A model generated the notes under the pieces. That model worked only from the letters and a program-made list of their open reading frames with translations. It did no database searches and had not been told where the DNA came from. A stretch of 52,600 bases of DNA from an uncultured Candidatus Saccharibacteria bacterium (GTDB lineage Bacteria > Patescibacteriota > Minisyncoccia > Minisyncoccales > JAGGXC01). Both the position numbers and the translations under genes were made by a program. Positions 5,687 through 51,666 of the stretch are shown here, piece after piece. The number at the start of each line of letters is the position of its first letter. Position 1 is the stretch's first letter. The stretch lies in the NCBI GenBank assembly GCA_964470765.1, contig CAYYDV010000001.1, positions 1 to 52,600 of the forward strand, written 5' to 3'.

Positions 5687-6400
5687 TCAAGGGCCCATTG
5701 CTACCGCAGCAGACGACGTGCAGTTACAGTAGGTCCACCGGCTCCGGTTTCCTTCACAATCCTGAAAGTTAGGAAAAGGAGGAACAGGATCCATGGTTAT
5801 ATCATCGCATAAATCTCCTAGGTAAACATCTCTACATCCTTCAGTTTCATCCCATTCTCGAACATTTAGATTACTTGCCATATCGGCGTCAGTTCCATAG
5901 TTATAACACTCACAATCATAATCACCACAAACATCACTACAATTTCTCCCTGGGACTACATCTCCGGCTTGGTTAAGGTATACCCCGGCGAGAGAATATC
6001 CAAAATTAATCTCAAATGCTCTTTTCACTTCTTTATAACTACCTGTTGACTTTATAGTAATCAGACCACAATTCCGGGAAAAAGTTACCTCATAGTCAGC
6101 TCTATTACTTAGATTACCAGAAAGATTATAACCTGATTTAACGCCTGAGCAATCTCCCTTACAGATCCCTAAATCACAACTTGGACTTTCATCAATACAT
6201 TTTCTATCTAAATAAAGTATTTCTTCAACTCCAGTATCAGCAGCACCTACAGCAATTACTGAGTAATCAATCCCTCTAATCATCTTCTTCTGACTTACTA
6301 AAATTACGCTTAATCCTAATCCCATAGCCAAAAAGATAGTCATTATTACTAAAGCTAAAAAAAGTGATACTCCTTTTTGATTTTTAATCTTATTCAACAT
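5687..6400 (-). CDS. PilX-like minor pilin / pseudopilin with a Cys-rich C-terminal domain
   Basis: N-terminus QKGVSLFLALVIMTIFLAMGLGLSVIL is a hydrophobic pilin-like helix without Glu5. It is last in a run of pilin genes and overlaps the upstream gene by 11 nt. Confidence 0.55.
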   Translation of the reverse strand: MLNKIKNQKGVSLFLALVIMTIFLAMGLGLSVILVSQKKMIRGIDYSVIAVGAADTGVEEILYLDRKCIDESPSCDLGICKGDCSGVKSGYNLSGNLSNRADYEVTFSRNCGLITIKSTGSYKEVKRAFEINFGYSLAGVYLNQAGDVVPGRNCSDVCGDYDCECYNYGTDADMASNLNVREWDETEGCRDVYLGDLCDDITMDPVPPFPNFQDCEGNRSRWTYCNCTSSAAVAMGP

Positions 6401-6941
6401 CGAGGCTTCTTTGAGAAATAGTGTTTTGAATCTTTATTACCGGCTGTTCTTCGGCCTTTTCACCTTTTCCTTTTATTTTCAAGAATAAAGTTACCCGGGG
6501 CTGTCCAGAATCATCAAGATTGACATTAAATTCTTCTACTTTTAAATCATCCGAAGTTAGAAATGACCCTGGATCTGCTGATGAACATATCGTCGTCTTC
6601 CGTTTCAATCTTTCATTCACGAGGAAAATCTCCCAACAGCAAGGATCACTTTCATTGCCAATAAACTTTATAGCATCTTGGTAAGGTATCTCATAATATG
6701 CATCAGCAGTAATACAGGATGGAAGATAAATACTTTCTTGAGCCATTCTCAAGTGACGACTCATATATTCCATAACATAACTCGTCTGAGCTAAAAGTTC
6801 TTGAGAAGCTAGAGACCTTCTTTGAGTTTTTAGAGCTAAGGTAAACAAACCAGAAATCATACCAAAAACTAAACTAAAAATAATCATGGTGACCATAATT
6901 TCAATCAAGGTATAGCCTTCATTTGACATTTTTTGTTTCAT
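6390..6941 (-). CDS. Type IV minor pilin (prepilin-type N-terminal cleavage/methylation domain)
   Basis: Contains SNEG|YTLIEIMVTMIIFSLVFG, the class III signal motif with Glu5. Confidence 0.75.
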   Translation of the reverse strand: MKQKMSNEGYTLIEIMVTMIIFSLVFGMISGLFTLALKTQRRSLASQELLAQTSYVMEYMSRHLRMAQESIYLPSCITADAYYEIPYQDAIKFIGNESDPCCWEIFLVNERLKRKTTICSSADPGSFLTSDDLKVEEFNVNLDDSGQPRVTLFLKIKGKGEKAEEQPVIKIQNTISQRSLDVE

Positions 6942-10701: not shown

Positions 10702-11274
10702 TTAATCAAGCGCGACCTTTCCTAAAATATTACTTTTATCAATTAGACCAAAGCGGGTACTATCTAAAGAGCCAGAAACAAGATTGCCTAAGATTAAGAA
10801 AGCATTCTCAGGAATTACTCCTTTATAATCTCTTTCATATAAAGCCAGCATTTTAGATTTCTTTTCACTTAAAATATAAGGTTTATCCTGGGAATTCTTG
10901 ACAATCTCGCCATTGATTAAAATGTTCCATCCCCTACTGTTTTTTTCTAAATGAAATTTGTCTTTAGGTAATCCTTTAACGATTTTAATAATTGGATTGG
11001 AGCATCCAGAATAATCATAGGCAATAATGTCGTTTCTTTTAATCTCATTACAATTGTAATAATCAAAAAGAATTTTTTCTGTCTCCCCCGTTTCAACAAG
11101 AGGACTTAAAGAACTTCCCCGAACAATTCTTTCTTCTATCTTAGCAGAGCATTCTTCTGCTTCTGAATTAACTGGCTGGAAAGCTTTTTCTAAGTCTCTT
11201 GAAAAGATTAAAACCCCTATCCCAACTAAAACCAGAAAAGCTAAATAAACTAATTTTCTCTTCGGAGATATCAT
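10702..11274 (-). CDS. Signal peptidase I (S26 family)
   Basis: RGSSLSPL matches the GxSMxP Ser box, IIKIVKGLPKD the KR.iGlPGD Lys box, and GNLVSGSLDSTRFGLI the GDN..S.DSR box. Has an N-terminal TM. Confidence 0.75.
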   Translation of the reverse strand: MISPKRKLVYLAFLVLVGIGVLIFSRDLEKAFQPVNSEAEECSAKIEERIVRGSSLSPLVETGETEKILFDYYNCNEIKRNDIIAYDYSGCSNPIIKIVKGLPKDKFHLEKNSRGWNILINGEIVKNSQDKPYILSEKKSKMLALYERDYKGVIPENAFLILGNLVSGSLDSTRFGLIDKSNILGKVALD

Positions 11275-11330
11275 TTTAAAATCTGTAATTTTCCTTAACT
11301 AAAATCGTCCCGTTTTTTCTTTCCCCTAAA

Positions 11331-12122
11331 TTATCTGCAGCAAGGCAAAGGCCAGGATTGGTCACATGTGACAGCCGAGACCGTTCCCTCCATGGTTGTC
11401 CTAGGTCCATAATTGGCTCCGTCGGCGGATCTCCATTGCTGGCATGTTGCGGCTTGGGGAGTCCTCGCAACAGATTTTGCTCCAGCTCCTCCGTATATCG
11501 TCTCGCTACCAACAGCTCCAACAACAGCATCTCTTACCCATACTCTATCATTCCAGTTAAACTGCGCTCCTACTCTCGCTATCTCATCCATACTACACCA
11601 GTGACTACCCTCTTCGGGAAAAGCGGTTTCGCACTTACTATTTGCTCCAGCGAGACCAAGTAAATTGCCAGTGTAGTGGGGTGTCAGTCCAACAAGCTCT
11701 ACACCACAACCACCATTTGCCGCATCCACATAACCTTTAGTGGCTACATCAGAATTAACAGTTGGGTTAGCAACGTTTATAATTCTAAAATCAGCAGAAC
11801 CTCCAAGCTTGATATCACCAGCTACCTCTAATTTAGAGTCAGGGTTAAGTACTCCAATGCCAACTTTACCACTTCCATTGCCAAGAGCTCCATCAATAAT
11901 TAAGCCGAAATCGTTATAGCCAGTATTTAACATCAAACCACCGATTTTTGTTTGGGAAGAGGTTCCTACATTTAAAGGAGTATCAACATTGTCTCCAGGA
12001 GGATCCTGAGAAGGTTCCTCCCAGGCTAAAGCCCAGAAACCCAAAGCAAAGCAAAGAATTAATACCCCGAAAACAAGAGAAACAACTTTGGAAGAAATTT
12101 TTTGATGAGTTTTAAAAAACAT
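11331..12122 (-). CDS. Secreted protein with N-terminal anchor, tail-fibre-like Gly-rich region and a GC-rich, Cys-rich C-terminal domain
   Basis: 263 aa. TM segment VVSLVFGVLILCFALGFWALA, then KVGIGVLNPDSKLEVAGDIKLGG. The C-terminus carries YTGNLLGLAGANSKC...WPLPCCR. Confidence 0.6.
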   Translation of the reverse strand: MFFKTHQKISSKVVSLVFGVLILCFALGFWALAWEEPSQDPPGDNVDTPLNVGTSSQTKIGGLMLNTGYNDFGLIIDGALGNGSGKVGIGVLNPDSKLEVAGDIKLGGSADFRIINVANPTVNSDVATKGYVDAANGGCGVELVGLTPHYTGNLLGLAGANSKCETAFPEEGSHWCSMDEIARVGAQFNWNDRVWVRDAVVGAVGSETIYGGAGAKSVARTPQAATCQQWRSADGANYGPRTTMEGTVSAVTCDQSWPLPCCR

Positions 12123-12219
12123 AGGTTTTAATACTAATAACCGTCCATCGACCTTTAATTAAATTAATTACTTTAGAGTTTTAAGTAGTCTAAAACATTT
12201 CTTACAATCACAAGATTTG

Positions 12220-12537
12220 TTATTGAGAGCCTAATTTCTTTAGAGCTTCTTCATAGGCCTGCTTTTCTTCTTCTGATAATGGTCTTGGTTCTTTTCCGCC
12301 TAATTTCTTTAGAGCTTCTTCATAGGCCTGCTTTTCTTCTTCGGTTAATGGTCTTGCTTCTTTTCCACCTAATTTCTTTAAAGCTTCCTCATATGCTTCT
12401 TCGCTTGAGGGAGCTGGCAGCTCAGGCTCTTCCCCTTCCTTTCCTTGAAAAACCAAGTAAGCTATTCCAACAATTAGGAAAGTAATTATTACAGTAATTA
12501 CCAGAAAAACTTCCTTTTCTTTAATATTCTTAATCAT
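12220..12537 (-). CDS. Small membrane-anchored protein with 23-aa tandem repeats
   Basis: An N-terminal TM is followed by about 2.5 copies of GGKE(A/P)RPL(T/S)EEEKQAYEEALKKL. Confidence 0.55.
   Translation of the reverse strand: MIKNIKEKEVFLVITVIITFLIVGIAYLVFQGKEGEEPELPAPSSEEAYEEALKKLGGKEARPLTEEEKQAYEEALKKLGGKEPRPLSEEEKQAYEEALKKLGSQ
12230..12402 (-). repeat. 69-bp tandem repeat, about 2.5 copies
   Basis: The unit starts (cctaatttc) are at 12230, 12299 and 12368. The first two copies are nearly identical. Confidence 0.85.
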
Positions 12538-12564
12538 ATCTCTATTATATAATATTTAACTAGA

Positions 12565-13356
12565 TTAATAAATAATAAAAGCAAGGTACCAATCCATAAA
12601 CTTCTCCCCCCAGAATAAAGCAATGAAAGTACCTATTACCAGAAAAGGAGCAAAAGGGACGGCTGATTTTAAGGTTTTTTGTCCAAAAATAATCAATCCT
12701 GTTCCTATCAGAGCCCCAATAAAAAAAGCTGAAAATAAAGCAACTAGGATATTGGGCCAGCTCAGCAAAAGACCTAAGAAAAAAACTAACTTAACATCGC
12801 CAAAACCTAACCAGCGACACAGAGATATTAAAAATATTATAAGGAAAAAAGCACTAGCTAAGAAAGCAGCCAGCAAAGGATAAAACAAACTTCCTGAATC
12901 TAATTTCCAAGTTTTAAAATCTAAAGCCATAAATAATTGATATAGGAAGCTAATAGCAATAGCCGGGTAAATTACTTTATCAGGAATAAGGAAGTGTTTG
13001 AAATCATAAACAAAGATAACAATCAAAAAACAAGAAGCAATTAATAGAAAACCAGAATAAGTAATTGAAAATGATTGGCTAGCTATTAAAACAAATAATC
13101 CTCCAGTAGTTACTTCTACTAAAGGATATTGCCAAGATATCTTTTTAGAACAATAATGACACTTACCTTTCAAAATTAAAAAACTAAAAACTAGAATTAA
13201 ATACAACCAAGATAAATTCTGCCGGCAATGAGGACAAAAAGAGCGACCTCGTAAAAAACCTTCTACGGTCTTAAGCCTATAAATCACACAATTCAAAAAA
13301 GAACCAACTGCTAATCCAATAAAAAAAACAGGAAAATAAAGAAATAAATTTAACAT
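12565..13356 (-). CDS. pilD: Prepilin peptidase (A24 family)
   Basis: Cys pairs CPHCRQ...CHYCSKKISWQYPLVE. Aspartyl motifs GFGDVKL and PFAPFL. Polytopic. Confidence 0.9.
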   Translation of the reverse strand: MLNLFLYFPVFFIGLAVGSFLNCVIYRLKTVEGFLRGRSFCPHCRQNLSWLYLILVFSFLILKGKCHYCSKKISWQYPLVEVTTGGLFVLIASQSFSITYSGFLLIASCFLIVIFVYDFKHFLIPDKVIYPAIAISFLYQLFMALDFKTWKLDSGSLFYPLLAAFLASAFFLIIFLISLCRWLGFGDVKLVFFLGLLLSWPNILVALFSAFFIGALIGTGLIIFGQKTLKSAVPFAPFLVIGTFIALFWGEKFMDWYLAFIIY

Positions 13357-13390
13357 TATCTTATTATATCATTATTTCCATTTTATTCTA

Positions 13391-13464
13391 ATAAGAACCT
13401 TTCGCTTCGCTCGAATTAAGAACCTCCTCGAGAACCTTGATTCTCGCTTCGCTCAAGAATTAAG
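13391..13464 (+). repeat. AGAACC-rich dispersed intergenic repeat, locus 1
   Basis: Sequence ataAGAACCtttcgcttcgctcgaattaAGAACCtcctcgAGAACCttgattctcgcttcgctcaagaatt. Related sequences occur at 14351, 19701 (reverse) and 27663. Confidence 0.75.
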
Positions 13465-13470
13465 ATTTAA

Positions 13471-13628
13471 GGGTAATTGGCGAAAGTGACACTTCGCAGC
13501 CGAGTCTTTGAATAAGCTCTGAGTTTTCCTTCTAAGAGAATAAATGCTCGGCGAGAAATAGCCGCAGCTTGAGATAACCTTGGCCTTGTTGCCTTAAGCT
13601 GACGGCGTGTCACTTAAGGTAATTGCCC
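13471..13628. other. GC-rich 158-nt element with nested helices (candidate structured RNA or MITE)
   Basis: Pairings read by eye are GGGTAATT 13471-78 with AATTGCCC 13621-28, AAGTGACAC 13484-92 with GTGTCACTT 13607-15, GCCGAG 13499-504 with CTCGGC 13547-52, and GCCGCAGCTT 13561-70 with AAGCTG-a-CGGC 13596-606. Confidence 0.3.
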
Positions 13629-13663
13629 TCAAAGTTTCCAGTGCGGGGCTTGAATGCTCCGCA

Positions 13664-13698
13664 ATTTAGAAAAGTCTCGCATTTAGAAAATGCGAGAC
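13664..13698 (-). terminator. Intrinsic terminator after the major pilin gene
   Basis: Perfect 9-bp stem GTCTCGCAT/ATGCGAGAC (13674-82/13690-98) followed on the minus strand by TTTTCT. Confidence 0.7.
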
Positions 13699-13753
13699 AA
13701 ACCTAAAGTCTTTAGTAAGGTTTAAAACTTCTTTTTTTCTCAAGACAAAAGTC

Positions 13754-14224
13754 TTACCAACAACACTCAACAGCAGTCTCTGGCTCGGTGTCCATTTGCC
13801 TGGTTCCTCTATGGCTGGCAGCAAAATATGTAACTGGAGTTGTTTCTAACGTTGCGTAAGTGCAGTACCATTGACCTACAGCGACGTCTGTCAATGGACA
13901 CCCAACAGTCGCAGCGGTATTAGCTTCCCAATCATAAAGAATGGGGGTAGCAGCAGTAGACTGAGGATCTTCAGGAACCGGACTTAAATAATCGCCAATA
14001 TCGGTAAGCATGGTAGCGCTAGTAAGATAAGCCTGGTCCTCATCGTACTGCATTTCCATAGCCAGACTAATTTGCCTCATATCAGACTGCCTCCGGGCAT
14101 TTCTCGCTTTTGCTCTGGCTCCTCCTAAGGAAACCAAGACAATAGAAGCTAAGATTCCAATAATAGCAATAACTACTAATAATTCAATTAAGGTAAAACC
14201 TTGATGTTTTTTAGTTTTTAACAT
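13754..14224 (-). CDS. Major type IV pilin
   Basis: MLKTKKHQG|FTLIELLVVIAIIGILASIVLVSLGGARAKARNA. The C-terminus has Cys pairs. The gene has its own promoter-like box and terminator. Confidence 0.85.
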   Translation of the reverse strand: MLKTKKHQGFTLIELLVVIAIIGILASIVLVSLGGARAKARNARRQSDMRQISLAMEMQYDEDQAYLTSATMLTDIGDYLSPVPEDPQSTAATPILYDWEANTAATVGCPLTDVAVGQWYCTYATLETTPVTYFAASHRGTRQMDTEPETAVECCW

Positions 14225-19185: not shown

Positions 19186-19698
19186 TTAATAAGAATAGGT
19201 TTTTAAATTTAGACTGGCCGAAAAGGGTTCGTCTTCTTGGCTAGAACCAAGACTTACACTCTCTATACTGAAAAACCGAACTGAGTCTTGTAAGTAATTA
19301 AGAAAATTTATGAAAGAGGAATAGCTACCGGAAACACTTAAAGAAATAGGGATTTCTTGGATTCTTGACTCCTCAGAAGGATTAGAAGTATAACTCATTT
19401 CTTGACAAAGCAAGCCTTGGCGAGAACATATCTCGGGAAAGAAATTATAGAATTGGAGTAAATAGACTTTCTTAGGAAGAGCCGAATCAAGAATAGAAAG
19501 CTGATCCTGATACTGCTCCATTTTTTCAGAAAGGCTTCTTAACCCAGCATAATACTCTTCTCCTTCTTGGATACTAACTTTAATTTCTCCAATCTCTAAC
19601 TCCATGCTTGATATTTCCTGATAAGCCGGAAAAACCAAAAAATACCCTATGGACCCAGTGATTAAAAAGAAGATAATGATGAAATAGAAACGAGACAT
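19186..19698 (-). CDS. PilO-like pilus assembly protein
   Basis: 170 aa with an N-terminal TM followed by a coiled-coil. Called by position in the pilM-N-O order. Confidence 0.55.
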   Translation of the reverse strand: MSRFYFIIIFFLITGSIGYFLVFPAYQEISSMELEIGEIKVSIQEGEEYYAGLRSLSEKMEQYQDQLSILDSALPKKVYLLQFYNFFPEICSRQGLLCQEMSYTSNPSEESRIQEIPISLSVSGSYSSFINFLNYLQDSVRFFSIESVSLGSSQEDEPFSASLNLKTYSY

Positions 19699-19700
19699 AT

Positions 19701-19750
19701 TAGAATACGCTTCGCGTTCAAGGTTCTTGAGCGAAGCGAAAGGTTCTTAT
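19701..19750 (-). repeat. AGAACC-rich dispersed intergenic repeat, locus 3 (reverse orientation)
   Basis: The reverse complement reads aaatAAGAACCtttcgcttcgctcAAGAACCttgaacgcgaagcgtattcta. Confidence 0.7.
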
Positions 19751-20274
19751 TTAAATAATTCGGGAGCTAAAGAAAAGACTACGCTAAAAGCAACTTCTTC
19801 TTCATCTCCCACAGAGAAACTAGATAATTCAAAATCACCAATCTTAGACTCCCCTTCAAAAATATAAATTTGTTGAATTAAAGTTGTAACACTATCAGCC
19901 TGACCAGAAAGTGATACTGTTTCTTCTAGAAGATCTAACTCTAGGCTAGACCACATAACTTTAGGATGGGTAATAGTTCCTATAAATTCAAAGAATTTTG
20001 TTGGTTCCCGGTAAGAATCAAGTAAAAAAGAAAGGTCTCCAATTTCTTCCTCATGCTTCATAAGATCCCTTTTTAAGTTCCTTAGCTCAACTGTTTCTTG
20101 AACAGCTAAACGAGTTCTTAAATCTTCTAACCCCTGGTCTTTTTTATCTTTAACAGAATACAAACCAAAATAAGCAGCTATGGTTAAGATTAAAAGAATC
20201 AAAGAAAAATAGAATAAAAAGGTAGTGATTTTCTTGGGTTTAGCTTTAGGTCTGGGAACAATTTCAACTACCAT
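19747..20274 (-). CDS. PilN-like pilus assembly protein
   Basis: 175 aa with a single TM after a basic N-terminus. Lies immediately downstream of pilM. Confidence 0.55.
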   Translation of the reverse strand: MVVEIVPRPKAKPKKITTFLFYFSLILLILTIAAYFGLYSVKDKKDQGLEDLRTRLAVQETVELRNLKRDLMKHEEEIGDLSFLLDSYREPTKFFEFIGTITHPKVMWSSLELDLLEETVSLSGQADSVTTLIQQIYIFEGESKIGDFELSSFSVGDEEEVAFSVVFSLAPELFK

Positions 20275-20275
20275 A

Positions 20276-21334
20276 TTACATCAGACCTCTTAAGGCGGCT
20301 CCGACAGCGACCGAAAAAGAAGGTCCGGTTTTCTTTAATTTTTTTTCTAAAATCGGCGGGTAGCTAAAGCCAAAAAATGGATTAGCTAACACTGTTTCTT
20401 TTTTAAAGTAAGAAGAGAGATATTGATTTAATCCTGGAAGGAAAGATGATCCGCCAGCCATTATTATTTTTTTAACTATCTTCCCTTGAGCTTCAAAATC
20501 TTTTAAAATTCTCTCTATTTCTATTATAATCAAATTGATTAAGGGAAGCAAGGTATCTTTAATTTCTTCGGATTTTAGACCTTGCTCTCTTTTCAAGGTT
20601 TCAGCTTTTTCAGAATCAATGGATAAAGATTTAACTAGGGCATGGGTTAGGTCATTTCCCGAAACATCGGAACTATAACTCAACTTTAAAATTCCTTCAT
20701 CAACGATATTAATAATCGTGCTTTGAGCCCCAATATCTAAAAGACAAACTAGTTCTTTTTTGTCTTTAACCAAAGCTCGAGCTAAACTAAAAGCTTCGGC
20801 CTCTAAATATTTGAGCTCAAGGCGAGAAGCTTTAGCAATAGCTTGATATCTCTCAACGACTTCCTTGGGAACAGCAACTAAGAGCATGTCAAGCTTCGTC
20901 CCTCTTTTACCAGTTTTACCTCCGGTTAAAAACCAGTCAAGGATAACATCCGATACGGGAACCGGGATGTGGCGACGAGCTTCAAAATTGACTGCCTCGG
21001 GAATTTCTTCTTCGGACATTGGTGGTAATTCAAAGGTAGTAAAAAAAGTAGAAAAATCAGGAATAGCAAAAGTAGCCTCTTTGGTCTTAATCCCAGCTTC
21101 TTTTAGAATCGCCCTAATAACCTTAGAAACATCGGGAGAAGAAAGCATGAAATTTCCTTCTTCCCCAAAAGTCTGGTAGGGTTTCTGATAAAGGGAAGAG
21201 GCGGCAACCCGCCCATAGTTCTTCAATTCTATCTTTCCTCCCCAACGTGAAATCTCAACCATTTTTATCATAGTTACCCCGATGTCTATTCCTAAAAAAT
21301 TTTTTCGGATTACTTTAAACCGTTCGAGAATCAT
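20276..21334 (-). CDS. pilM: Type IV pilus assembly protein PilM (actin-like ATPase fold)
   Basis: 352 aa. Contains FLGIDIG, LLDIGAQST and IIMAGGSSFLPGL. Confidence 0.85.
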   Translation of the reverse strand: MILERFKVIRKNFLGIDIGVTMIKMVEISRWGGKIELKNYGRVAASSLYQKPYQTFGEEGNFMLSSPDVSKVIRAILKEAGIKTKEATFAIPDFSTFFTTFELPPMSEEEIPEAVNFEARRHIPVPVSDVILDWFLTGGKTGKRGTKLDMLLVAVPKEVVERYQAIAKASRLELKYLEAEAFSLARALVKDKKELVCLLDIGAQSTIINIVDEGILKLSYSSDVSGNDLTHALVKSLSIDSEKAETLKREQGLKSEEIKDTLLPLINLIIIEIERILKDFEAQGKIVKKIIMAGGSSFLPGLNQYLSSYFKKETVLANPFFGFSYPPILEKKLKKTGPSFSVAVGAALRGLM

Positions 21335-29743: not shown

Positions 29744-30355
29744 TTATTGTCCTAATAAATCAGCTAAGACATAAACTAATCCTCGAGAAAACAAAATAAT
29801 TGCATAACCAACTACAGTATAGGTAATTATTCTTTTAGCCGTATTGACTTTCTCAATATCGCCAGCGGAAGTCATGAACATGAATCCACCAACAAGTATT
29901 AATATCGGAGTTATAGCAGTAGCAAACCAAAAAACGTAATTAATAACACTATCTAATAAGTCTTCAAAGGTTGTAGATCCTGTTGGAGGGCAAAGGCAAA
30001 CTTTTCCCGTAGGAGAATCATAGCCGGTTGGATTAGTATCGGGATCGCAGGGATCAGCACAATAATCTTCACAAAGACCGCTAGGAGGTGGGTTTGAACC
30101 ATCACAAGCAGTAGGTGGTGGAGGTGGTGGAGGTGGTGGAGGTGGTATTAGTGATCCACAGCATAAAGGGAGAGGAGCGACACAAGCAGGAACACAGCAA
30201 TTTTGGGGGATTGGACCAGGAGGAACAGGACAAGGACCAAGTGGGGCGCAGTAAGAGCTAGGCGGACAACCCTGAGCCGAAACAGAATTTACTCCCAAGA
30301 ATAGGAATCCTAAAATTCCAATAAGGCAGATCAAAATAAGTAATTTTTTTTCCAT
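29744..30355 (-). CDS. TrbC/VirB2-like (T4SS-pilin-like) protein with a Cys/Pro-rich ectodomain and a poly-Pro run
   Basis: Signal peptide, CCVPACVAPLPLCCGSLIPPPPPPPPPPPTAC, then FWFATAITPILILVGGFMFMTSAGDIEKVNTAKRIITYTVVGYAIILF. Confidence 0.5.
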   Translation of the reverse strand: MEKKLLILICLIGILGFLFLGVNSVSAQGCPPSSYCAPLGPCPVPPGPIPQNCCVPACVAPLPLCCGSLIPPPPPPPPPPPTACDGSNPPPSGLCEDYCADPCDPDTNPTGYDSPTGKVCLCPPTGSTTFEDLLDSVINYVFWFATAITPILILVGGFMFMTSAGDIEKVNTAKRIITYTVVGYAIILFSRGLVYVLADLLGQ

Positions 30356-43823: not shown

Positions 43824-44318
43824 TTACCCTTCTAAAACCTCAATGTAAGTTCTCTTTGCTCCGAAGATCTTAGCTTCGTCTTTTGAAGGAAACCAGATAT
43901 CTACATGGTAATAGCCTTTTTTCCGATGCATCCGGTCTTCAATTACAAAGATTTCATCTCCGTAGATCTCCGGAATTCTAATTTCTGTTCCAAAAGGATA
44001 CTTATTATTAGCTACGATTCCTTCTCTCACTTGAGCTCCACTAGCAGTAATTAAAGGACTTTCATCGGTCTCTTCAGGCGAAGAGGAATAACCAGTAATT
44101 ATTACTTTTATTTCTTTAACTACTATTTTATTCCTAACCGGGACCAAACTGTTATCTTGAATAGTAATTAAATTATCTTCTAAATTTTTCATTGTAAAAT
44201 CAACGGATTCTTCAATCATATCTGCTTCCATCTGTTGAACTCCCAGCCAAAAACAAAGAGTAATGGCAATTATTCCTCCCCAGAAAAAAATAATTAAATT
44301 TTCTGAATTTCTAAGCAT
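43824..44318 (-). CDS. 3D-domain (MltA/RlpA-like DPBB) cell-wall protein
   Basis: N-terminal TM, then ITGYSSSPEETDESPLITASGAQVREGIVANNKYPFGTEIRIPE...FVIEDRM. Confidence 0.75.
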   Translation of the reverse strand: MLRNSENLIIFFWGGIIAITLCFWLGVQQMEADMIEESVDFTMKNLEDNLITIQDNSLVPVRNKIVVKEIKVIITGYSSSPEETDESPLITASGAQVREGIVANNKYPFGTEIRIPEIYGDEIFVIEDRMHRKKGYYHVDIWFPSKDEAKIFGAKRTYIEVLEG

Positions 44319-44324
44319 TGTCCT

Positions 44325-44353
44325 AAGTTAACTTATCTAAAATTGGTTGTCAA
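44325..44353 (-). promoter_or_regulatory. Sigma70-like promoter TTGACA-17-TAACTT, positioned to give a leaderless transcript of the 3D-domain gene
   Basis: The minus strand reads ggTTGACAaccaattttagataagtTAACTTaggacaATG. Only 6 nt separate the -10 box from the ATG. Confidence 0.4.
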
Positions 44354-44360
44354 CCCCCTA

Positions 44361-44391
44361 ATAAAAAAGGGGTTATTTATATAAATAACCC
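44361..44391 (-). terminator. Intrinsic terminator after the TFB-like gene
   Basis: The minus strand reads GGGTTATTTA-ta-TAAATAACCC followed by CTTTTTTAT. Confidence 0.7.
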
Positions 44392-44416: not shown

Positions 44417-45343
44417 TTACAAAGCGATGTCGATGCTTAGTTCCTCAGCTAATTTCTTGTATCTGTTACGGACAGTAACTTCTGTAACTCCAGCCACATC
44501 AGCTACTTCTCTCTGGGTTCTTTTTTCTCCGCAAAGTATGCTGGCAATATAGACCGAAGCAGCGACAGTTCCTGTTGGGCCTTTCCCAGTAGACAACTCC
44601 TTTTTAGCAGATTCCTCTAATATTTCTATTGCTTTACTACGTACTCCTCCGTTTAGCTTTAATTGACTACAGAATCTTGAGACGTAGTCTATAGGTGAGG
44701 TTGGCATAAGTTTTAGACCAAGCTCTCGAGATAGAAGTCTGTAAGTTCTTCCGATTTTTTTTCTGGGAATTCCGGAGACACTGGCTATCTCATCTAAAGT
44801 TCTTGGTACGCCGCATTGTCTACAAGCAGCATATAAAGCAGCAGCAGTTTCTTTTATAGCTCTTCCTCTGGTCAAACCTTTCATTGTCGCCTTTCTATAA
44901 ATTACACTTGCTGTTTCTCTGATGTCTCTTGAAAGCACTGCAACAGAACTCATTCTGGCTATTTCTGATAAGGCAGTAGATAAGTTGGCTTCTCTTGAAC
45001 CCTGCATCGCGAGTCTTTCTTGCCATTTCCTTAAACGATACATTTTATATCGGGTTTTCGCAGAAAGGGACTTTCCGTAAGAATCTCTACCTTTTCCTAT
45101 TACAGTGCTTAGATCTCTATCATATTGAGTAGGAGTTGTTGGTGGTCCAACTCGTTCTCGTTTGTCTCGCTGTTCTTTATCAAATGCCCTCCATTCAGGA
45201 CCATAATCAATTAAATCCCAATCAAGAACAAATCCACAATTCTCACAAACAATTTCGGCACGTGCTCTATCTCTTTCAAAATTAGTACCGCCACATTCTG
45301 GACACTTAGTTGTTTCTTCTATTTCTTTTCTCTCTTTTTTCAT
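44417..45343 (-). CDS. Transcription initiation factor IIB / archaeal TFB homologue, full length
   Basis: Zn ribbon CPECGG..(13)..CENCG. B-reader/linker [25 protein letters not shown]...DRDLSTVIG. Two cyclin-like repeats ([28 protein letters not shown]...[16 protein letters not shown] and [12 protein letters not shown]...AIEILEE...[16 protein letters not shown]). C-terminal [23 protein letters not shown]. Confidence 0.88.
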
Positions 45344-45432
45344 TATTGTATCCAGCTCCTATTTATTTTTAAAATTGTTAAGCTTCTAATTATTGATTGT
45401 CATATTACACTCTAAATGTCAATGGTTTAACT

Positions 45433-45456
45433 GAAAAACCCCGATATAGTCGGGGC
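45433..45456 (-). terminator. Intrinsic terminator ending the tRNA-Arg/Ala/nudix/Phe/Gly unit
   Basis: The minus strand reads CCCCGA-ctata-TCGGGG followed by TTTTT. Confidence 0.7.
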
Positions 45457-45464
45457 TTTCCCTG

Positions 45465-45536
45465 AGCGGGAGACGGGGGTTGAACCCGCGATCTTCTCGT
45501 TGGCAACGAGACGTTCTACCACTGAACTACTCCCGC
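45465..45536 (-). tRNA. tRNA-Gly (anticodon GCC)
   Basis: Acceptor gcgggag/ctcccgc. Anticodon arm tctcg-ttGCCaa-cgaga. T-loop ttcaacc. Confidence 0.9.
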
Positions 45537-45543
45537 TTAATTG

Positions 45544-45616
45544 TGCCGCGGGCCGGACTTGCACCGGCTACCTCGAATTTTTCAGATTCGCGCTCTACTA
45601 CATGAGCTACCGCGGC
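45544..45616 (-). tRNA. tRNA-Phe (anticodon GAA)
   Basis: Acceptor gccgcgg/ccgcggc. D-loop atgtagta with no GG. Anticodon arm cgaat-ctGAAaa-attcg. The T-loop is tgcaagt (G at 55). Confidence 0.8.
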
Positions 45617-46017
45617 AAATATTTTCCTTTTACAAAATTTTTAAGACATAAAAACAAAGGTTGGGGTAAATTTTTCCAGGAAAACCAGCCAATTTCTGAC
45701 ATTTCCCGATTACAAACTTTAGCTTCTCCGGACTTCCAATCAGATTCAACCCATATTGTAATATAATGCTTTTTTTCCTTTTTGAAAAGGTCCTCGGTAA
45801 AGCCAATTACCTTTAAGTTTTTAATCTCAACTCCCACTTCTTCTTTGGTTTCCCGTTTGGCGCATTTTAAAATATCCTCTTCAAAATCAAGGTGTCCGCC
45901 GGGTGGGGCCCAAGTCCCATTACCATGAGAACCCTTTCTCTTAATCAAGAGGGTTTTATTATTTTTCTTCACTAAAGCTGATACTCCAACTTTAACTGAT
46001 TTATTTCTATAATCCAT
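45607..46017 (-). CDS. NUDIX hydrolase
   Basis: Nudix box GGHLDFEEDILKCAKRETKEEVGVE. The stop TAG (45607-09) lies inside tRNA-Phe positions 8-10. Confidence 0.88.
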   Translation of the reverse strand: MDYRNKSVKVGVSALVKKNNKTLLIKRKGSHGNGTWAPPGGHLDFEEDILKCAKRETKEEVGVEIKNLKVIGFTEDLFKKEKKHYITIWVESDWKSGEAKVCNREMSEIGWFSWKNLPQPLFLCLKNFVKGKYLPR

Positions 46018-47330: not shown

Positions 47331-47759
47331 TTAGAAATGGTCTTTTGGTTTAAACTTAGAATAGATTTCATTAAATCTTTCTTCATCAAGATAAGTATTG
47401 TATTTTGTATGGTTTTTAATGTTTTTTACAATCAAATAAAAATCTCTTAGTTTATTAAATTTATCATTATCTTTGTATTTATCTAAAACTTCCTTATCAT
47501 TTCTATCTATAGCTAAAAGAAATTCATCTAAGCTAATGGTTGGTTCTATAATCCTGATTCTTTTTTCTAATGATTCTAAAGCTATTTTTTCAGGATATAG
47601 ATAGCCAATAAAATATAATATAGCTCTGGCTTCATTTAATTCCTCCCAAGATGGTTCCTTATTACCAAGTATTCTCTGGTATCTTTTCCAAAGATCTTCA
47701 AGGCTTTCTTCAATTTTCTTTGTGTCTAGTAAATAAGTATATTTTAATAAATCCTTCAT
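47331..47759 (-). CDS. Hypothetical all-helical protein, translationally coupled to the swivel-domain gene
   Basis: 142 aa with no motif I recognise. Its start overlaps the upstream stop by 4 nt. Confidence 0.5.
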   Translation of the reverse strand: MKDLLKYTYLLDTKKIEESLEDLWKRYQRILGNKEPSWEELNEARAILYFIGYLYPEKIALESLEKRIRIIEPTISLDEFLLAIDRNDKEVLDKYKDNDKFNKLRDFYLIVKNIKNHTKYNTYLDEERFNEIYSKFKPKDHF

Positions 47760-48046
47760 ATTGTTTTAATAATCTTACTATCAAAATCAATCATTACTTC
47801 GTCACCAGTCCTAAATTTCTTAGTTGCTTCATTAACCCCCATTAGAAGGGGTTTATTAAATTCCCTGGCAATGATAGCAGCATGACAGAGCTTGTTATCA
47901 ATTTCAGTAACAATTGCCTCTATATTATTGATAACAACAACTAAATCAGGAGTTGTATTTTTAGCAACTAAAATTACCTTATCTTTTATCCTATAGTAAT
48001 CCTCCTTATCATTTATTACTATAACTTTACCTTTAATAATGCTCAT
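47756..48046 (-). CDS. Stand-alone PEP-utilizer mobile (phosphohistidine swivel) domain protein
   Basis: The 96-aa sequence KGKVIVIND...KVILVAKNTTPDLVVVINNIEAIVTEIDNKLCHAAIIAREFNKPLLMGVNEATKKFRTGDEVMIDFDSKII matches the G.v.v....ILV...t.P.......aivt..G...sHaAIvARE...P...G pattern. Confidence 0.7.
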   Translation of the reverse strand: MSIIKGKVIVINDKEDYYRIKDKVILVAKNTTPDLVVVINNIEAIVTEIDNKLCHAAIIAREFNKPLLMGVNEATKKFRTGDEVMIDFDSKIIKTI

Positions 48047-48212: not shown

Positions 48213-48662
48213 TTATTTCAAATCTAATATTAATCGTCTCGCGTAACCCCAGTCAATCCCTAATTTTTTACCAATTTTTCGATAGCTCCAACCCTTCTCT
48301 CTTAATAATTTCGCTCTAGATTTTCTCTTTCTATATGTTTCTTTTTTTCGCTTCATTTCTAGTAAATCTCTTCTTAGCTGGAGTATTGCTCTACAAGCCA
48401 TCTTTCTTTTAAGAATAAGACAAGGAACTACTTTCTTTAAAAACTTATAGATGTCTTCCTTGCGAGCAATGTAATAGAGCCAAGCATCCTTCCAATGTGC
48501 TTTTCTTTTTTTCAGTTTTATTACATGACCATAACCTGTAAAATTACAAATCTTATTAAGAATCTCCTCATTTGTCTGGGGAATTGTGATCCTAAACCCT
48601 TTTCCATTGGGAGAAATAGAGCCCTCACCATCAAAAAATCCTGCAATATATTTCCATGTCAT
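48213..48662 (-). CDS. Free-standing LAGLIDADG homing-endonuclease-like protein with a C-terminal helix-turn-helix
   Basis: Single LAGLIDADG motif YIAGFFDGEGS. A basic linker precedes GWSYRKIGKKLGIDWGYARRLI. Confidence 0.75.
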   Translation of the reverse strand: MTWKYIAGFFDGEGSISPNGKGFRITIPQTNEEILNKICNFTGYGHVIKLKKRKAHWKDAWLYYIARKEDIYKFLKKVVPCLILKRKMACRAILQLRRDLLEMKRKKETYRKRKSRAKLLREKGWSYRKIGKKLGIDWGYARRLILDLK

Positions 48663-49470: not shown

Positions 49471-50037
49471 TCATTTTGTGAAAACTTTTAATGAAAAGCT
49501 AGCTGTAATATCTCTCGCTGAAAACTTAGCTAACTCTTTAGTTCCAAGACCGCCTTCAGCCAGTCTTTTTAGATTTAACTCATAAATTTCAATTAAATAA
49601 GAGCTATTTTCCAATTTTTCAATAAATCTGGAAAAATCAGAAAAAGAGCCAAGGGCTTGTAAACGAAAATCTAGAAAAGGCCAAGGGCTTTCTTTGGTCC
49701 TCTCTGAAACAACTGAAGAAATTTCTATCAGAACATTTGAGTTAGAAGCAGTTTTCTCTAAAAAGTTAATAAATTCAACCGGAGATTCTGAAGTAATGAA
49801 TAAATCCTCTATTTTTTCTAGATCAGGTTTAATTTCTTGATAAACCGTTTTAAAATTTTGGAAATTCTTTATTTCCTCAGAAAAAGTAAGACGAGCTTCT
49901 TCTTCTAAAAGCAACTGCTGGGAACTTTCTTTTATTTCTTCAATCAAAGGAAGAATTACAAATAAAATTAGAATAAGGGAAATTCCTATAAATAGAATCA
50001 AAGATATATAATTTTTTTTATCAAGCTTTAATTTCAT
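49471..50037 (-). CDS. PilO-like protein, second copy
   Basis: 188 aa with an N-terminal TM followed by a coiled-coil. Follows the pilN-like gene with a 4-nt overlap. Confidence 0.5.
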   Translation of the reverse strand: MKLKLDKKNYISLILFIGISLILILFVILPLIEEIKESSQQLLLEEEARLTFSEEIKNFQNFKTVYQEIKPDLEKIEDLFITSESPVEFINFLEKTASNSNVLIEISSVVSERTKESPWPFLDFRLQALGSFSDFSRFIEKLENSSYLIEIYELNLKRLAEGGLGTKELAKFSARDITASFSLKVFTK

Positions 50038-50573
50038 TTTTTGATTTTGATTTTAAACCTTGAATTGAAATCTATGTCAATAGGCTTAATCCAGCAAGAA
50101 GGAGGAAAGTAAATCTCCTCAAAATTTTCTTTCTGTTCAAGATTTTCTTTAAATTCTAATAAAGCTTCTCTACTTTTAGAAAAACTAGAAAGGCTAACTT
50201 GGGAAGTGTTTTTCTGATAAGAAAAGTTATTTAAGTATATTTCCTCGGGTAGAGTTTTTGAAACTTCTTCTAAAATCTCAGTCAATTTAACCTGATTTTG
50301 ATAAAAAGAATTTAAATTGGAAAAAGTTTCATTGGCTAATTCAATTTTTTCCGAAAAGTTTTTGATTTCGGAAACCTCAAATTCTCCCTGTTCTTGCTCA
50401 AGAATAATCCTGGCCGCCTCAGCCCGACCTAAGATATAGATTCTCATTGAAGCCAAAATTAAAACTAAATACAGAAGAAAAATAAAGCCAAGAATTTCTA
50501 AAATTGAAACTATTTTTTTTCTCTCTTCGGTCTGAAGAATTTCTTTCTCTTTGGAAGGTAAGATATTAATCAT
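50034..50573 (-). CDS. PilN-like protein, second copy
   Basis: 179 aa with a single TM. Overlaps the pilM2 stop by 8 nt. Confidence 0.5.
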   Translation of the reverse strand: MINILPSKEKEILQTEERKKIVSILEILGFIFLLYLVLILASMRIYILGRAEAARIILEQEQGEFEVSEIKNFSEKIELANETFSNLNSFYQNQVKLTEILEEVSKTLPEEIYLNNFSYQKNTSQVSLSSFSKSREALLEFKENLEQKENFEEIYFPPSCWIKPIDIDFNSRFKIKIKK

Positions 50574-51666
50574 GTCTTTCTCTGGCCCCTCTTAAAGCTA
50601 ACCCTAAAGCAACGGTATATTTAAGAGATTCTTTATAAGATAATTGAGCTGTTTCTTTTTGAGGTTCTGGCAAAATATTTACCCAGGGATTACCTAACTC
50701 CACTGGAATTTTAAGCTGGCTACTTAGAAAATCAGTTAATCCTTCAAGGTTAGCTCCTCCTCCACACAAAAAAATCTTTTGGACTCCTTTATGGCCGGGA
50801 GGTAAGTGTTCATGAGAGTTATGAGTCCGGTAGAAATTTAAACGTTTTTTAATCTGCTCGACCAGCTCAGTTAAAACAGAAGAAAGGGCCTCGGACACTT
50901 TCTTGGCTTGAGGTCCTTTACCTCTGAGACCGTATTTTAATTTTAATCTTTCAGCTTCTTCCAAGTCAATCTTTAAATTTCTAGCAATAGCTTCAGTAAA
51001 TTTCTGAGAAAAAACAGAAATAGCACTAGTAAACCTTAATGAATAGCCGGAAAAAATAATGAAACTACTTTCAATTGCTCCCAAGTCAATTAGAAGTAAA
51101 CTATAAGGAGCAACTTCTTTTTTGACTAAAGCTCGAGCAACAGCTAAAGACTCAAGCTCTAAAACCTTGGGTTGAAGTCCGGCTTTTTTAAGGCAGGAAA
51201 TATAGGAGTCAACAACTTTCCTGGGAAAAGCAACAATTAAAACATCGGCGTGATCTAAATGATTATAGACGGGAGGAATAATTTGAGAATCGAGATAAAC
51301 TTCATCTATCGGCAAAGGAATATAATTTTCGGCCTCATATTGAACGGCTTTTTTTAAATCTTCTTTTTTAATCTTGGGCATTTGGATTACTTGTAAAAAG
51401 CTTTTTTCTTCTGGCAAAGAGCAAATTACATATTTAGTCCCCAATTTTTCTCCTTTTACTTCAGAAATCCCTTCTTTAATAATTCCGGCTAAAGCTTCTT
51501 CATCTTTAACTTCTCCGCCTTCAATTACCCCTGGTTTAATTCTTTGCTCATTAAAAGAAGCTAAAACAAAATTCTTTCTCCTTTTCTTGAGTTTTACAAT
51601 CTTCAAAGATGAATTAGAGATATCTAATCCAAATATTTCCGGTTTTAAAGTTAAAACTTTCAACAT
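50566..51666 (-). CDS. pilM: PilM-family actin-like pilus assembly protein, second copy
   Basis: 366 aa. Contains FGLDISNSS, LLIDLGAIES and FLCGGGANLEGL. Confidence 0.85.
   Translation of the reverse strand: MLKVLTLKPEIFGLDISNSSLKIVKLKKRRKNFVLASFNEQRIKPGVIEGGEVKDEEALAGIIKEGISEVKGEKLGTKYVICSLPEEKSFLQVIQMPKIKKEDLKKAVQYEAENYIPLPIDEVYLDSQIIPPVYNHLDHADVLIVAFPRKVVDSYISCLKKAGLQPKVLELESLAVARALVKKEVAPYSLLLIDLGAIESSFIIFSGYSLRFTSAISVFSQKFTEAIARNLKIDLEEAERLKLKYGLRGKGPQAKKVSEALSSVLTELVEQIKKRLNFYRTHNSHEHLPPGHKGVQKIFLCGGGANLEGLTDFLSSQLKIPVELGNPWVNILPEPQKETAQLSYKESLKYTVALGLALRGARERHD

Follow-up and report, generated by a model that had tools for sequence, protein, structure and literature searches.

An archaeal-type transcription factor B gene kept at a conserved chromosomal slot in a subclade of CPR/Patescibacteria

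Gene Content and Features of the Locus

The window, i.e., the whole 52.6-kb stretch of DNA that was analyzed, carries a gene for transcription factor B (TFB), with tRNA clusters on both sides and a conserved gene for a 164-aa protein as its downstream neighbor (Table 1). Apart from TFB, the contig is bacterial and belongs to the CPR/Patescibacteria. Pfam annotation of nearly all open reading frames (ORFs) identified NAD-dependent LigA, FtsW/RodA, RecG, TsaD, GyrA, S1, FtsH, PurB, PurC, L19, IF2, RbfA, and an HtrA-like protease, as well as a type IV pilus set (two T2SSE-family ATPases, a PilC-like T2SSF protein, PilM/N/O, and a prepilin peptidase). The named relatives of the IF2 are listed as 'Patescibacteria group bacterium'. 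These annotations bear out the bacterial chromosome context that a preliminary description had read from the DNA letters. Among the ORFs of the window, no Pfam match was found for TBP or archaeal RNA polymerase (RNAP) subunits. A search with the P. woesei TBP as the query, validated against 1PCZ, found no TBP gene in the window and the other CPR loci searched, which together span 578 kb, and likewise none in 1.1 Mb of archaeal flanks.

Table 1. Positions of the TFB gene and neighboring features in the window.
Feature	Position	Strand	Basis
TFB coding sequence, 308 aa	44417..45343	-	Pfam, NCBIfam, PDB match, alignment, model
Shine-Dalgarno AGGAG, 12 nt before ATG	45356..45360	-	Sequence; ribosome-binding role inferred
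Putative bacterial promoter	45394..45422	-	Consensus and conservation; function inferred
Hairpin and T-run (GCCCCGActataTCGGGGTTTTT) directly 3' of tRNA-Gly	45434..45458	-	Read from sequence; missed by scan
Intrinsic terminator after TFB (GGGTTATTTATATAAATAACCC + CTTTTTTATT)	44360..44391	-	Stem 44391-44370, then T-run
tRNA-Gly(GCC) and tRNA-Phe(GAA)	45464..45616	-	tRNA annotation
Conserved CPR 164-aa gene, no Pfam family, downstream slot anchor	43824..44318	-	

The signals around the TFB gene are of predicted bacterial type. The putative promoter combines TTGACA (45417-45422), an N14 spacer, and a TGn element with a weak -10 (CAATCA), and a UTR of about 50 nt separates this -10 from the AGGAG/ATG. 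A consensus scan of the same region lists only weaker overlapping candidates. The TTGACA-N14-TGn pattern upstream of TFB recurs in the related CPR loci L093 and L096 described below, and the L101 sequence is cut at the -10. At the Shine-Dalgarno position, L101, L093, and L096 have GGAGG or GAGGTGA, and a strong Shine-Dalgarno is present in all copies. The hairpin directly 3' of tRNA-Gly is likely the terminator of the tRNA transcript and would lie upstream of the TFB promoter. On the other side, the terminator after TFB corresponds by homology to the one found behind tRNA-Gly in relatives that lack TFB, and the whole stretch from the TFB stop to the 164-aa gene is homologous to the tRNA-Gly/164-aa spacer of those relatives. 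This homology suggests that the insert consists of promoter, UTR, and ORF, about 1.05 kb in total. The 164-aa gene has a putative promoter of its own (TTGACA-N16-TTAACT at 44326-44353). The spacer of the TFB-less locus L094 was considered as a scar of TFB loss and was set aside as ambiguous, because it resembles a duplicated 164-aa gene promoter. Taken together, these patterns strongly support a predicted bacterial-type promoter, Shine-Dalgarno, and terminator for the TFB copies. The AGGAG motif and the strong terminator that had been noted earlier are thus both found, and the proposed integration landscape between tRNA clusters proved right in detail, as the insert lies immediately 3' of tRNA-Gly(GCC). 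The cassette has this position in every TFB-bearing locus for which the flank is available.

The GC content of the TFB gene is 40.5%, compared with an ORF mean of 35.2 +/- 3.8%, and the excess is found at codon position 2. Its GC3 (25.9%) is close to that of the host ORFs (27.5 +/- 4.1%), and its codon usage falls inside the host range (z = -1.6). The mild GC excess described previously is therefore real, but its cause is the amino-acid composition and not a foreign codon usage, since GC3 is host-like; GC was accordingly rejected as a sign of foreignness. Because the nearest archaeal TFBs are also low in GC, amelioration is weak evidence for the age of the gene.

Identity and Modules of the TFB Product

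The TFB ORF starts with ATG, and its reading frame is unbroken in the ORF list, in agreement with the earlier claim that it has no frame disruptions. Pfam assigns two TFIIB repeats (PF00382; 4.9e-42) and a Zn_Ribbon_TF domain (PF08271; residues 13-54, 1.4e-17). The NCBIfam model NF001658 'transcription initiation factor IIB' covers residues 2-307 of 308 with 427.6 bits (cut-off 384). The top PDB sequence match is the core of the P. woesei TFB (1d3u_B/1ais_B; 2e-56). In an AlphaFold model, pLDDT averages 72 and reaches 80-90 in the core, and the predicted core superposes on 1d3u_B with a target TM of 0.91 and an rmsd of 1.9 Å. The product is thus a full-length archaeal TFB that belongs to the TFB family by sequence and fold. 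The intact archaeal TFB recognized in the preliminary description is in this way confirmed by profile searches for both the Zn ribbon and the cyclin repeat (the latter found twice), by the PDB match and alignment, and by a predicted structure whose core fits the archaeal one.

The Zn ribbon follows the C-x2-C-x15-C-x2-C pattern with C14, C17, C33, and C36, which are invariant in the alignments. The alignment also places a B-reader helix (GPEWRAFD) and the B-linker motifs DLSTVIG and YRLRKW in the window TFB, and a C-terminal BRE-reading HTH (family pattern TEVT[VI]RNRYKEL) is recognizable in its sequence. Judged by these motifs, the window TFB has been shown to retain the ribbon, the linker, and the cyclin/HTH part, which in archaeal TFBs contact the RNAP dock, the clamp, and promoter DNA, respectively. 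However, the B-reader loop departs from GAPMTYTIHDKG, and the conserved Trp that follows IG is missing. The previous statement that all modules are present in the correct order therefore holds, but not in a pristine state, as the B-reader loop, the linker, and scattered core positions have drifted. In addition, residues 272-297, in the HTH, score above the Pfam cut-off for Sigma70_r4 (27.2 vs. 24.1 bits). This sigma-70 match is local and limited to region 4, and neither Pfam nor NCBIfam finds a sigma-70 region 2 in the protein. Membership in the sigma-70 family was ruled out because regions 2 and 4 are not both in the polypeptide.

Occurrence of the Same Arrangement in Other CPR Loci

Six further contigs, each from a different sample, encode an identical TFB protein; three of these are JGI metagenome contigs, and the other three belong to Logan assemblies of SRA runs. 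These contigs are 99.87-100% identical to the window at the DNA level, have the same junctions, and share the gene order NUDIX, tRNAs, TFB, 164-aa gene, rbfA, and IF2. Two of the TFB-carrying runs are from Baltic Sea sediments of the Bornholm Basin or Aarhus Bay, sampled 0.75-3 m below the sea floor (PMC9301287).

More diverged CPR loci carry TFB in the same slot. The context of one of the closest IF2 relatives (L093; IF2 75% identical, 106-kb contig) has the order 169-aa gene, TFB, tRNA-Gly(GCC), and tRNA-Phe. A metagenome scan with the 164-aa family provided 80 loci, in which TFB was sought by tblastn upstream of the 164-aa gene. TFB copies were located directly upstream of this gene in L101 and L096 (68 and 56% identical to the window TFB, respectively), and L096 repeats the full arrangement of the window from tRNA-His to rbfA. 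A further copy, in L174/P0245, is an 86% relative of the L093 copy and adjoins tRNA-Gly; its ORF stops early, at 258 aa, near the contig end. The distance from tRNA-Gly to the 164-aa gene measures 1145 nt in the window, 1142 nt in L093, and 1132 nt in L096, whereas roughly 55 related CPR loci without TFB have just 50-180 nt at this place.

When a tree is built from the 164-aa protein, the loci with TFB all group within a single CPR subclade, and no TFB was found outside that subclade among at least 50 loci. TFB-less loci (L087, L089, L091, L094, L098, and L099) are mixed into the same subclade. This patchy distribution means either several losses or a spread within the clade by recombination via the conserved flanks. 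Judging from these gene contents, TFB is dispensable, having been lost in several sister lineages.

Selective Constraint on the CPR TFB Genes

The dN/dS of TFB is 0.21 between the window and L101 and 0.28 between L093 and L174 (dS 0.26, unsaturated). For the same two pairs, pN/pS is 0.31-0.34, and it rises to 0.40-0.53 in more diverged CPR pairs. Archaeal TFB pairs (93-95% amino acid identity, with synonymous sites saturated) have a pN/pS of only 0.04-0.08. Within the same bacterial neighborhood, the values are 0.30-0.42 for the 164-aa gene and 0.13-0.20 for IF2. By pN/pS, the CPR TFBs lack the strong purifying selection that is typical of an essential general factor. These comparisons strongly support the view that purifying selection on CPR TFBs is 4-5 times weaker than that on archaeal TFBs, indicating that TFB is now an accessory gene with changed constraints and no longer an essential general factor.

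A similar pattern is observed at the 101 positions that are at least 98% conserved in archaeal TFBs. The window TFB keeps 92 of these, L101 and L096 keep 89 each, and L093 keeps 63, whereas the archaeal 5th percentile is 99. The Zn ribbon keeps 9/9 of its archaeal-conserved positions, and the drift is spread across the other modules. The motifs LSTxIG, YRLRK, and TEVTVR (the last in the HTH) are invariant in the window, the L101 type (P0022), and L093; the linker motif of L096 reads RMRK. The B-reader helix GPEWRAFD is intact in three CPR TFB lineages, and L093 has lost both this helix and the one that comes next to the HTH on its C-terminal side. The drift is slightly elevated in the B-reader loop and linker of the window, L101, and L093 copies, and in L096 it is highest in cyclin 2. 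Region-specific relaxation was considered and not built on, given the spread of drift over all modules and the L096 peak in cyclin 2. The occurrence in five CPR lineages at the same slot, the purifying selection, and the predicted bacterial expression signals agree with the earlier characterization of this gene as domesticated rather than decaying.

Origin and Retention of the CPR TFB Genes

The nearest archaeal TFBs of all four CPR TFBs compared are those of the Thermoplasmata metagenome-assembled genomes (MAGs) L007, L022, and L008, and this result is unchanged after the addition of 98 diverse representatives. The CPR TFBs are 47-67% identical to these Thermoplasmata TFBs, with 66-67% for the window. 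Four residue states (I128, S146, K254, and K274) are common to the CPR TFBs, whereas at least 93% of the near relatives (n = 224) have L, A, R, and R, respectively. An exhaustive search of representatives located the same states in distant TFBs. Accordingly, the claim that they are unique to CPR was dropped, and on the available alignment they are shared differences from the nearest relatives.

In neighbor-joining (NJ) trees of TFB, the window and L101 are sisters with 97.5% bootstrap support, as they are in the flank tree, and their dS is similar for TFB (1.05) and the neighboring gene (1.09). The monophyly of all CPR TFBs receives 69.5% bootstrap support with near relatives and 4% with 133 taxa; thus, the broadly sampled phylogeny against archaeal TFBs does not recover it. 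Similarity to distant TFBs is lower for the CPR copies (0.41, and 0.32 for L093) than for their archaeal neighbors (0.45), and for this reason the failure is read as a long-branch problem. Because of this collapse in NJ support, the case for a single origin rests mainly on synteny, shared flanks, and shared nearest relatives. A viral vector as the source was considered and set aside, as only two distant viral TFBs were found (IMG/VR L175 and L176).

Several explanations may be proposed for an archaeal gene at this position. The same appearance would result if the contig were chimeric, or if it were archaeal and had been mis-binned as bacterial, and a scan of GTDB genome contigs with the TFB does return, besides archaeal TFBs, TFB in three genomes labeled as Firmicutes or Actinobacteria (Anaerovoracaceae, Bifidobacteriaceae, and Lachnospiraceae). 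The one checked among these three (L026) sits on an archaeal contig, where TFB is flanked by genes for a tRNA-splicing endonuclease and CDC48, and this bin is mislabeled because the flanks are archaeal. For the window, however, six independent assemblies from different samples, of both JGI and Logan origin, reproduce the two TFB junctions, bacterial genes and tRNAs flank TFB on either side within 100-130 nt, and diverged CPR relatives have the same arrangement. These observations exclude the chimera or mis-binning that the preliminary description had kept in view, and the artifact explanation, with a probability close to nil, is effectively refuted. Independent captures, in which the tRNA-Gly slot served as an insertion hot spot and at least two CPR lineages took up related archaeal TFBs, could account for the failure of the broad NJ trees to unite all CPR TFBs. 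They would also fit the L093 TFB, which shares 43% identity with its counterpart in the window and marginally more (47-50%) with archaeal TFBs, and the other inserts gathered by the tRNA array (NUDIX in the window and a recombinase element in L089). Nevertheless, such captures are improbable. The inserts of 1132-1145 nt are nearly identical in size, orientation, and position; the non-coding DNA upstream of TFB is homologous between the window and L093 (z = 4.9) as well as between the window and L101 (z = 13); and all copies have the same nearest archaeal relatives and the four residue states in common. Moreover, no integrase or repeats were found flanking the cassette, and repeated uptake of one non-mobile housekeeping gene is unlikely. 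TFB was thus probably acquired once and then inherited in the CPR subclade.

A single acquisition could still have left a functionless passenger, i.e., a gene that was transferred by chance, is decaying slowly, and is intact only by an accident of time. The relaxation of constraint relative to archaeal TFBs, the losses in several sister lineages, and the L174/P0245 copy that ends at 258 aa (near a contig end) would all be compatible with such a history. It is nonetheless quite improbable, as four full-length ORFs survive at a synonymous divergence of at least 1, dN/dS is 0.2-0.3 even when the unsaturated L093-L174 pair is included, and the predicted promoter and Shine-Dalgarno are conserved. 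CPR genomes are also small and streamlined, which argues against the long persistence of a passenger. The best reading of these patterns is one ancient transfer, after which TFB was kept as an accessory gene. According to this reading, the ancestor of one CPR/Patescibacteria subclade of anoxic marine sediments would have acquired TFB from a Thermoplasmata-like archaeon. The cassette of about 1.05 kb (promoter, 5' UTR, and ORF) most likely landed 3' of tRNA-Gly(GCC), before the terminator and the promoter that precede the conserved 164-aa gene, and has since been passed on together with its flanking DNA in five or more lineages, with loss in several others. The joint claim of a bacterial TFB gene with a Thermoplasmata-like source, landing in this slot, inheritance and loss, bacterial signals, and weaker purifying selection is very probable.

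Possible Function of TFB in the Bacterium

Bacteria have none of the known partners of TFB, and the CPR protein therefore probably has another role now. The retained motifs suggest that it may still use the Zn ribbon and B-linker, which are the RNAP-binding parts, together with the DNA-binding cyclin/HTH core and its sigma-region-4-like HTH. With these, TFB may act inside the bacterium as a co-opted regulator that binds DNA and/or RNAP without TBP. This proposal is tentative, at somewhat less than an even chance, and is favored because of the ordinary genomic setting, the lack of a link to secretion, and the general relaxation of constraints. No secretion-related neighbor of TFB was found by Pfam among the ORFs of the window, and the HTH scores above the Sigma70_r4 cut-off; both observations count for an intracellular role. 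Relaxation across all modules counts in the same direction, as it is expected if the constraints imposed by multiple partners were lifted. On the other hand, we know of no bacterial partner or DNA target for TFB, and the TFB core alone binds DNA weakly. The persistence of GPEWRAFD and the BRE-reading HTH in three lineages also counts against an intracellular role, since the B-reader helix and this HTH are, to our knowledge, able to work only with archaeal or eukaryotic RNAP and promoters.

Alternatively, the same history may have led to a protein directed at an archaeon. A CPR bacterium that lives on or with an archaeon, for example a sediment Thermoplasmata of the donor type, could alter the pre-initiation complex of its partner, although we regard this as rather unlikely. 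One possible but doubtful form is a decoy that binds TBP-BRE DNA and the RNAP dock and is poor at initiation. The gene would then be a cross-domain weapon or lever, and it is conceivable, but on balance not expected, that the captured TFB enters the archaeon and competes for TBP-promoter complexes and the RNAP dock with the TFB of the host; host transcription would be shut down or redirected as a result. Such a target would fit the complete set of archaeal-conserved positions in the Zn ribbon, the invariance of LSTxIG, YRLRK, and TEVTVR (with RMRK in L096), and the intact B-reader helix of three lineages. It would also fit the drift in the window, L101, and L093, which is strongest in the B-reader loop and linker that are needed for productive initiation. 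Quick evolution and patchy loss suit a host-interaction gene, and the donor-like Thermoplasmata and this bacterium are both from marine sediments. Furthermore, CPR bacteria that parasitize methanogenic archaea have been documented (PMC9600506, PMC10936435, and PMC12281837), but these papers make no mention of TFB. An archaeal host of the present CPR clade is an assumption, and we know of no route by which the protein would cross two envelopes. The neighbors of TFB in the window are tRNAs and housekeeping genes with no secretion-system linkage, and in the alignment its N-terminus is that of an ordinary TFB, with no sign of a signal peptide. A decoy fitted to conserved archaeal surfaces should also drift less in the cyclin core than is seen. 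In another possible form, TFB would instead dock on the RNAP of the bacterium itself and act in place of or against sigma.

Significance and Comparison With Known Systems

TFB is a signature of archaeal and eukaryotic transcription start, and according to textbooks it is absent from bacteria. Informational genes that are hubs of multi-protein machines are also those least expected to survive an inter-domain transfer. No published report of TFB in CPR or any other bacterium was found in the literature. New aspects of the present locus are the host domain of TFB, its long residence there, a predicted set of expression signals of bacterial type, and an altered selection regime. A bacterial TFB that has been kept for long is a natural experiment on the TFB scaffold without TBP and archaeal RNAP. 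The CPR TFBs are concrete proteins for testing contact between TFB and bacterial RNAP, which bears on the debate on TFB-sigma homology, as well as for testing the manipulation of archaeal partners by CPR bacteria. If docking on bacterial RNAP is true, it would make the proposed relationship between TFB and sigma directly accessible to experiment. The combination of identical junctions in independent assemblies and the same arrangement in diverged relatives also provides a test that separates a real cross-domain gene from a mis-binned contig.

The closest known system is the archaeal TFB itself (NF001658; PF08271 and 2x PF00382), with the nearest examples in uncultured marine-sediment Thermoplasmata (L007 B8_G13, L022 AUK221, and L008). 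The CPR protein resembles it in length, module order, sequence (66-67% identity), and core fold (1D3U/1AIS). It differs in being encoded on a bacterial chromosome behind predicted bacterial-type signals with no TBP nearby, in a protein evolution that appears 4-5 times faster with drift in the B-reader loop and linker, and in its dispensability in sister lineages. The viral homologs L175 and L176 are likewise TFB genes outside cellular archaeal chromosomes, but they are 42 and 33% identical, respectively, and are not the source of the CPR copies. Within archaea, extra TFB paralogs act as regulators, such as the multiple TFBs of haloarchaea and Tfb3 of Sulfolobus. These paralogs indicate that cells can retain a TFB scaffold in the form of a factor that is non-essential, condition-specific, or partly degenerate. 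However, they work with their own TBP and archaeal RNAP, whereas the RNAP of the CPR host is sigma-dependent.

Intracellular bacteria such as Legionella have host-derived 'eukaryote-like' effectors known as nucleomodulins. The likeness is one of analogy only, in that a symbiont keeps a gene of the partner domain that is meaningful only against the machinery of the partner. For nucleomodulins, the secretion systems and signals are known, and for the CPR bacterium the partner would be an archaeon. Finally, transfers from archaea to CPR have already been described for form II/III RuBisCO (PMC6389311) and for archaeal-type TyrRS and TrpRS (PMC5370408). These cases share with TFB a move across domains into CPR followed by retention. 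Unlike TFB, they concern enzymes that work alone or with universal substrates, whereas TFB is the hub of a machine that bacteria lack.

Insertions in the tRNA array

The tRNA array that holds the TFB gene is a hot spot where mobile elements integrate. In the window, a NUDIX gene is a second small insertion in this array; its 3' end shares 10 nt with tRNA-Phe. In three related CPR loci that lack TFB in this slot (L087, L091, and L094), tRNA-Phe and tRNA-Ala are direct neighbors. In addition, another TFB-less relative (L089) has genes of mobile-element type immediately beside its tRNA-Phe/tRNA-Gly. The 169-nt spacer of L094, a close relative, could have arisen by promoter duplication, encode a small RNA, or be the scar left by a lost insert.

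The family of the 164-aa protein encoded downstream of TFB is kept beside tRNA-Gly(GCC) across many CPR genomes. The N-terminus of the protein is hydrophobic, whereas conservation is high in the C-terminal half (including EDRMH and YYHIDIWF). Pfam yielded zero matches, even at E<=1. Because the promoter is very near the ATG, the mRNA leader of this gene may be very short.

Features identified in the window and in comparison loci
Feature	Sequence	Position	Strand	Remarks
Two separate PilM/N/O-like sets	window	19186-21334 and 49471-51666		
203-aa ORF	window	29744-30355	-	T4SS pilin family (PF18895) match, 3.3e-06
164-aa protein gene	window	43824-44318	-	downstream of TFB; family in loci L087-L173
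NUDIX gene, 136 aa	window	45607-46017	-	between tRNA-Phe and tRNA-Ala
96-aa ORF	window	47756-48046	-	PEP-utilizers mobile domain and nothing else
LAGLIDADG endonuclease-like ORF	window	48213-48662	-	free-standing; adjoins tRNA-His
Serine recombinase, TPR protein, Peptidase_M78 protein, HTH_3 regulator	L089 (and L090)	10827-13919		beside tRNA-Phe/tRNA-Gly
Spacer, 169 nt	L094	882-1060		two TTGACA promoters with hairpin and T-run between them
TFB of L093-like lineage	L174	1173-1949		ends at 258 aa
TFB homolog	L175 (IMG/VR viral contig)	6001-6903		42% identity to window TFB
TFB homolog	L176 (IMG/VR viral contig)	6001-6852		33% identity to window TFB

Among the other genes of the window, the LAGLIDADG-like and PEP-utilizers ORFs are also found in the comparison loci L001 and L002. 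Pilus-related genes include a pilin-like ORF as well as the PilM/N/O-like sets.

TFB homologs in other genomes and viruses

The short TFB of L174, a CPR locus with TFB in the same slot, has a divergent tail (KLKPQKLKE), and the contig ends 26 nt beyond the stop codon. Either a frameshift has made this copy a pseudogene, or the contig end was misassembled.

Three GTDB genomes labeled as bacterial (Anaerovoracaceae, Bifidobacteriaceae, and Lachnospiraceae 'cleanbin'; L026, L029, and L032) have Methanomethylophilaceae-like TFBs on long contigs. The TFB of L026 is flanked by archaeal genes, namely those for a tRNA-splicing endonuclease and CDC48; therefore, at least this contig is archaeal, and either the genome is mislabeled or the contig was placed in the wrong bin. 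Finally, the two viral contigs with TFB homologs are presumably archaeal viruses or proviruses.
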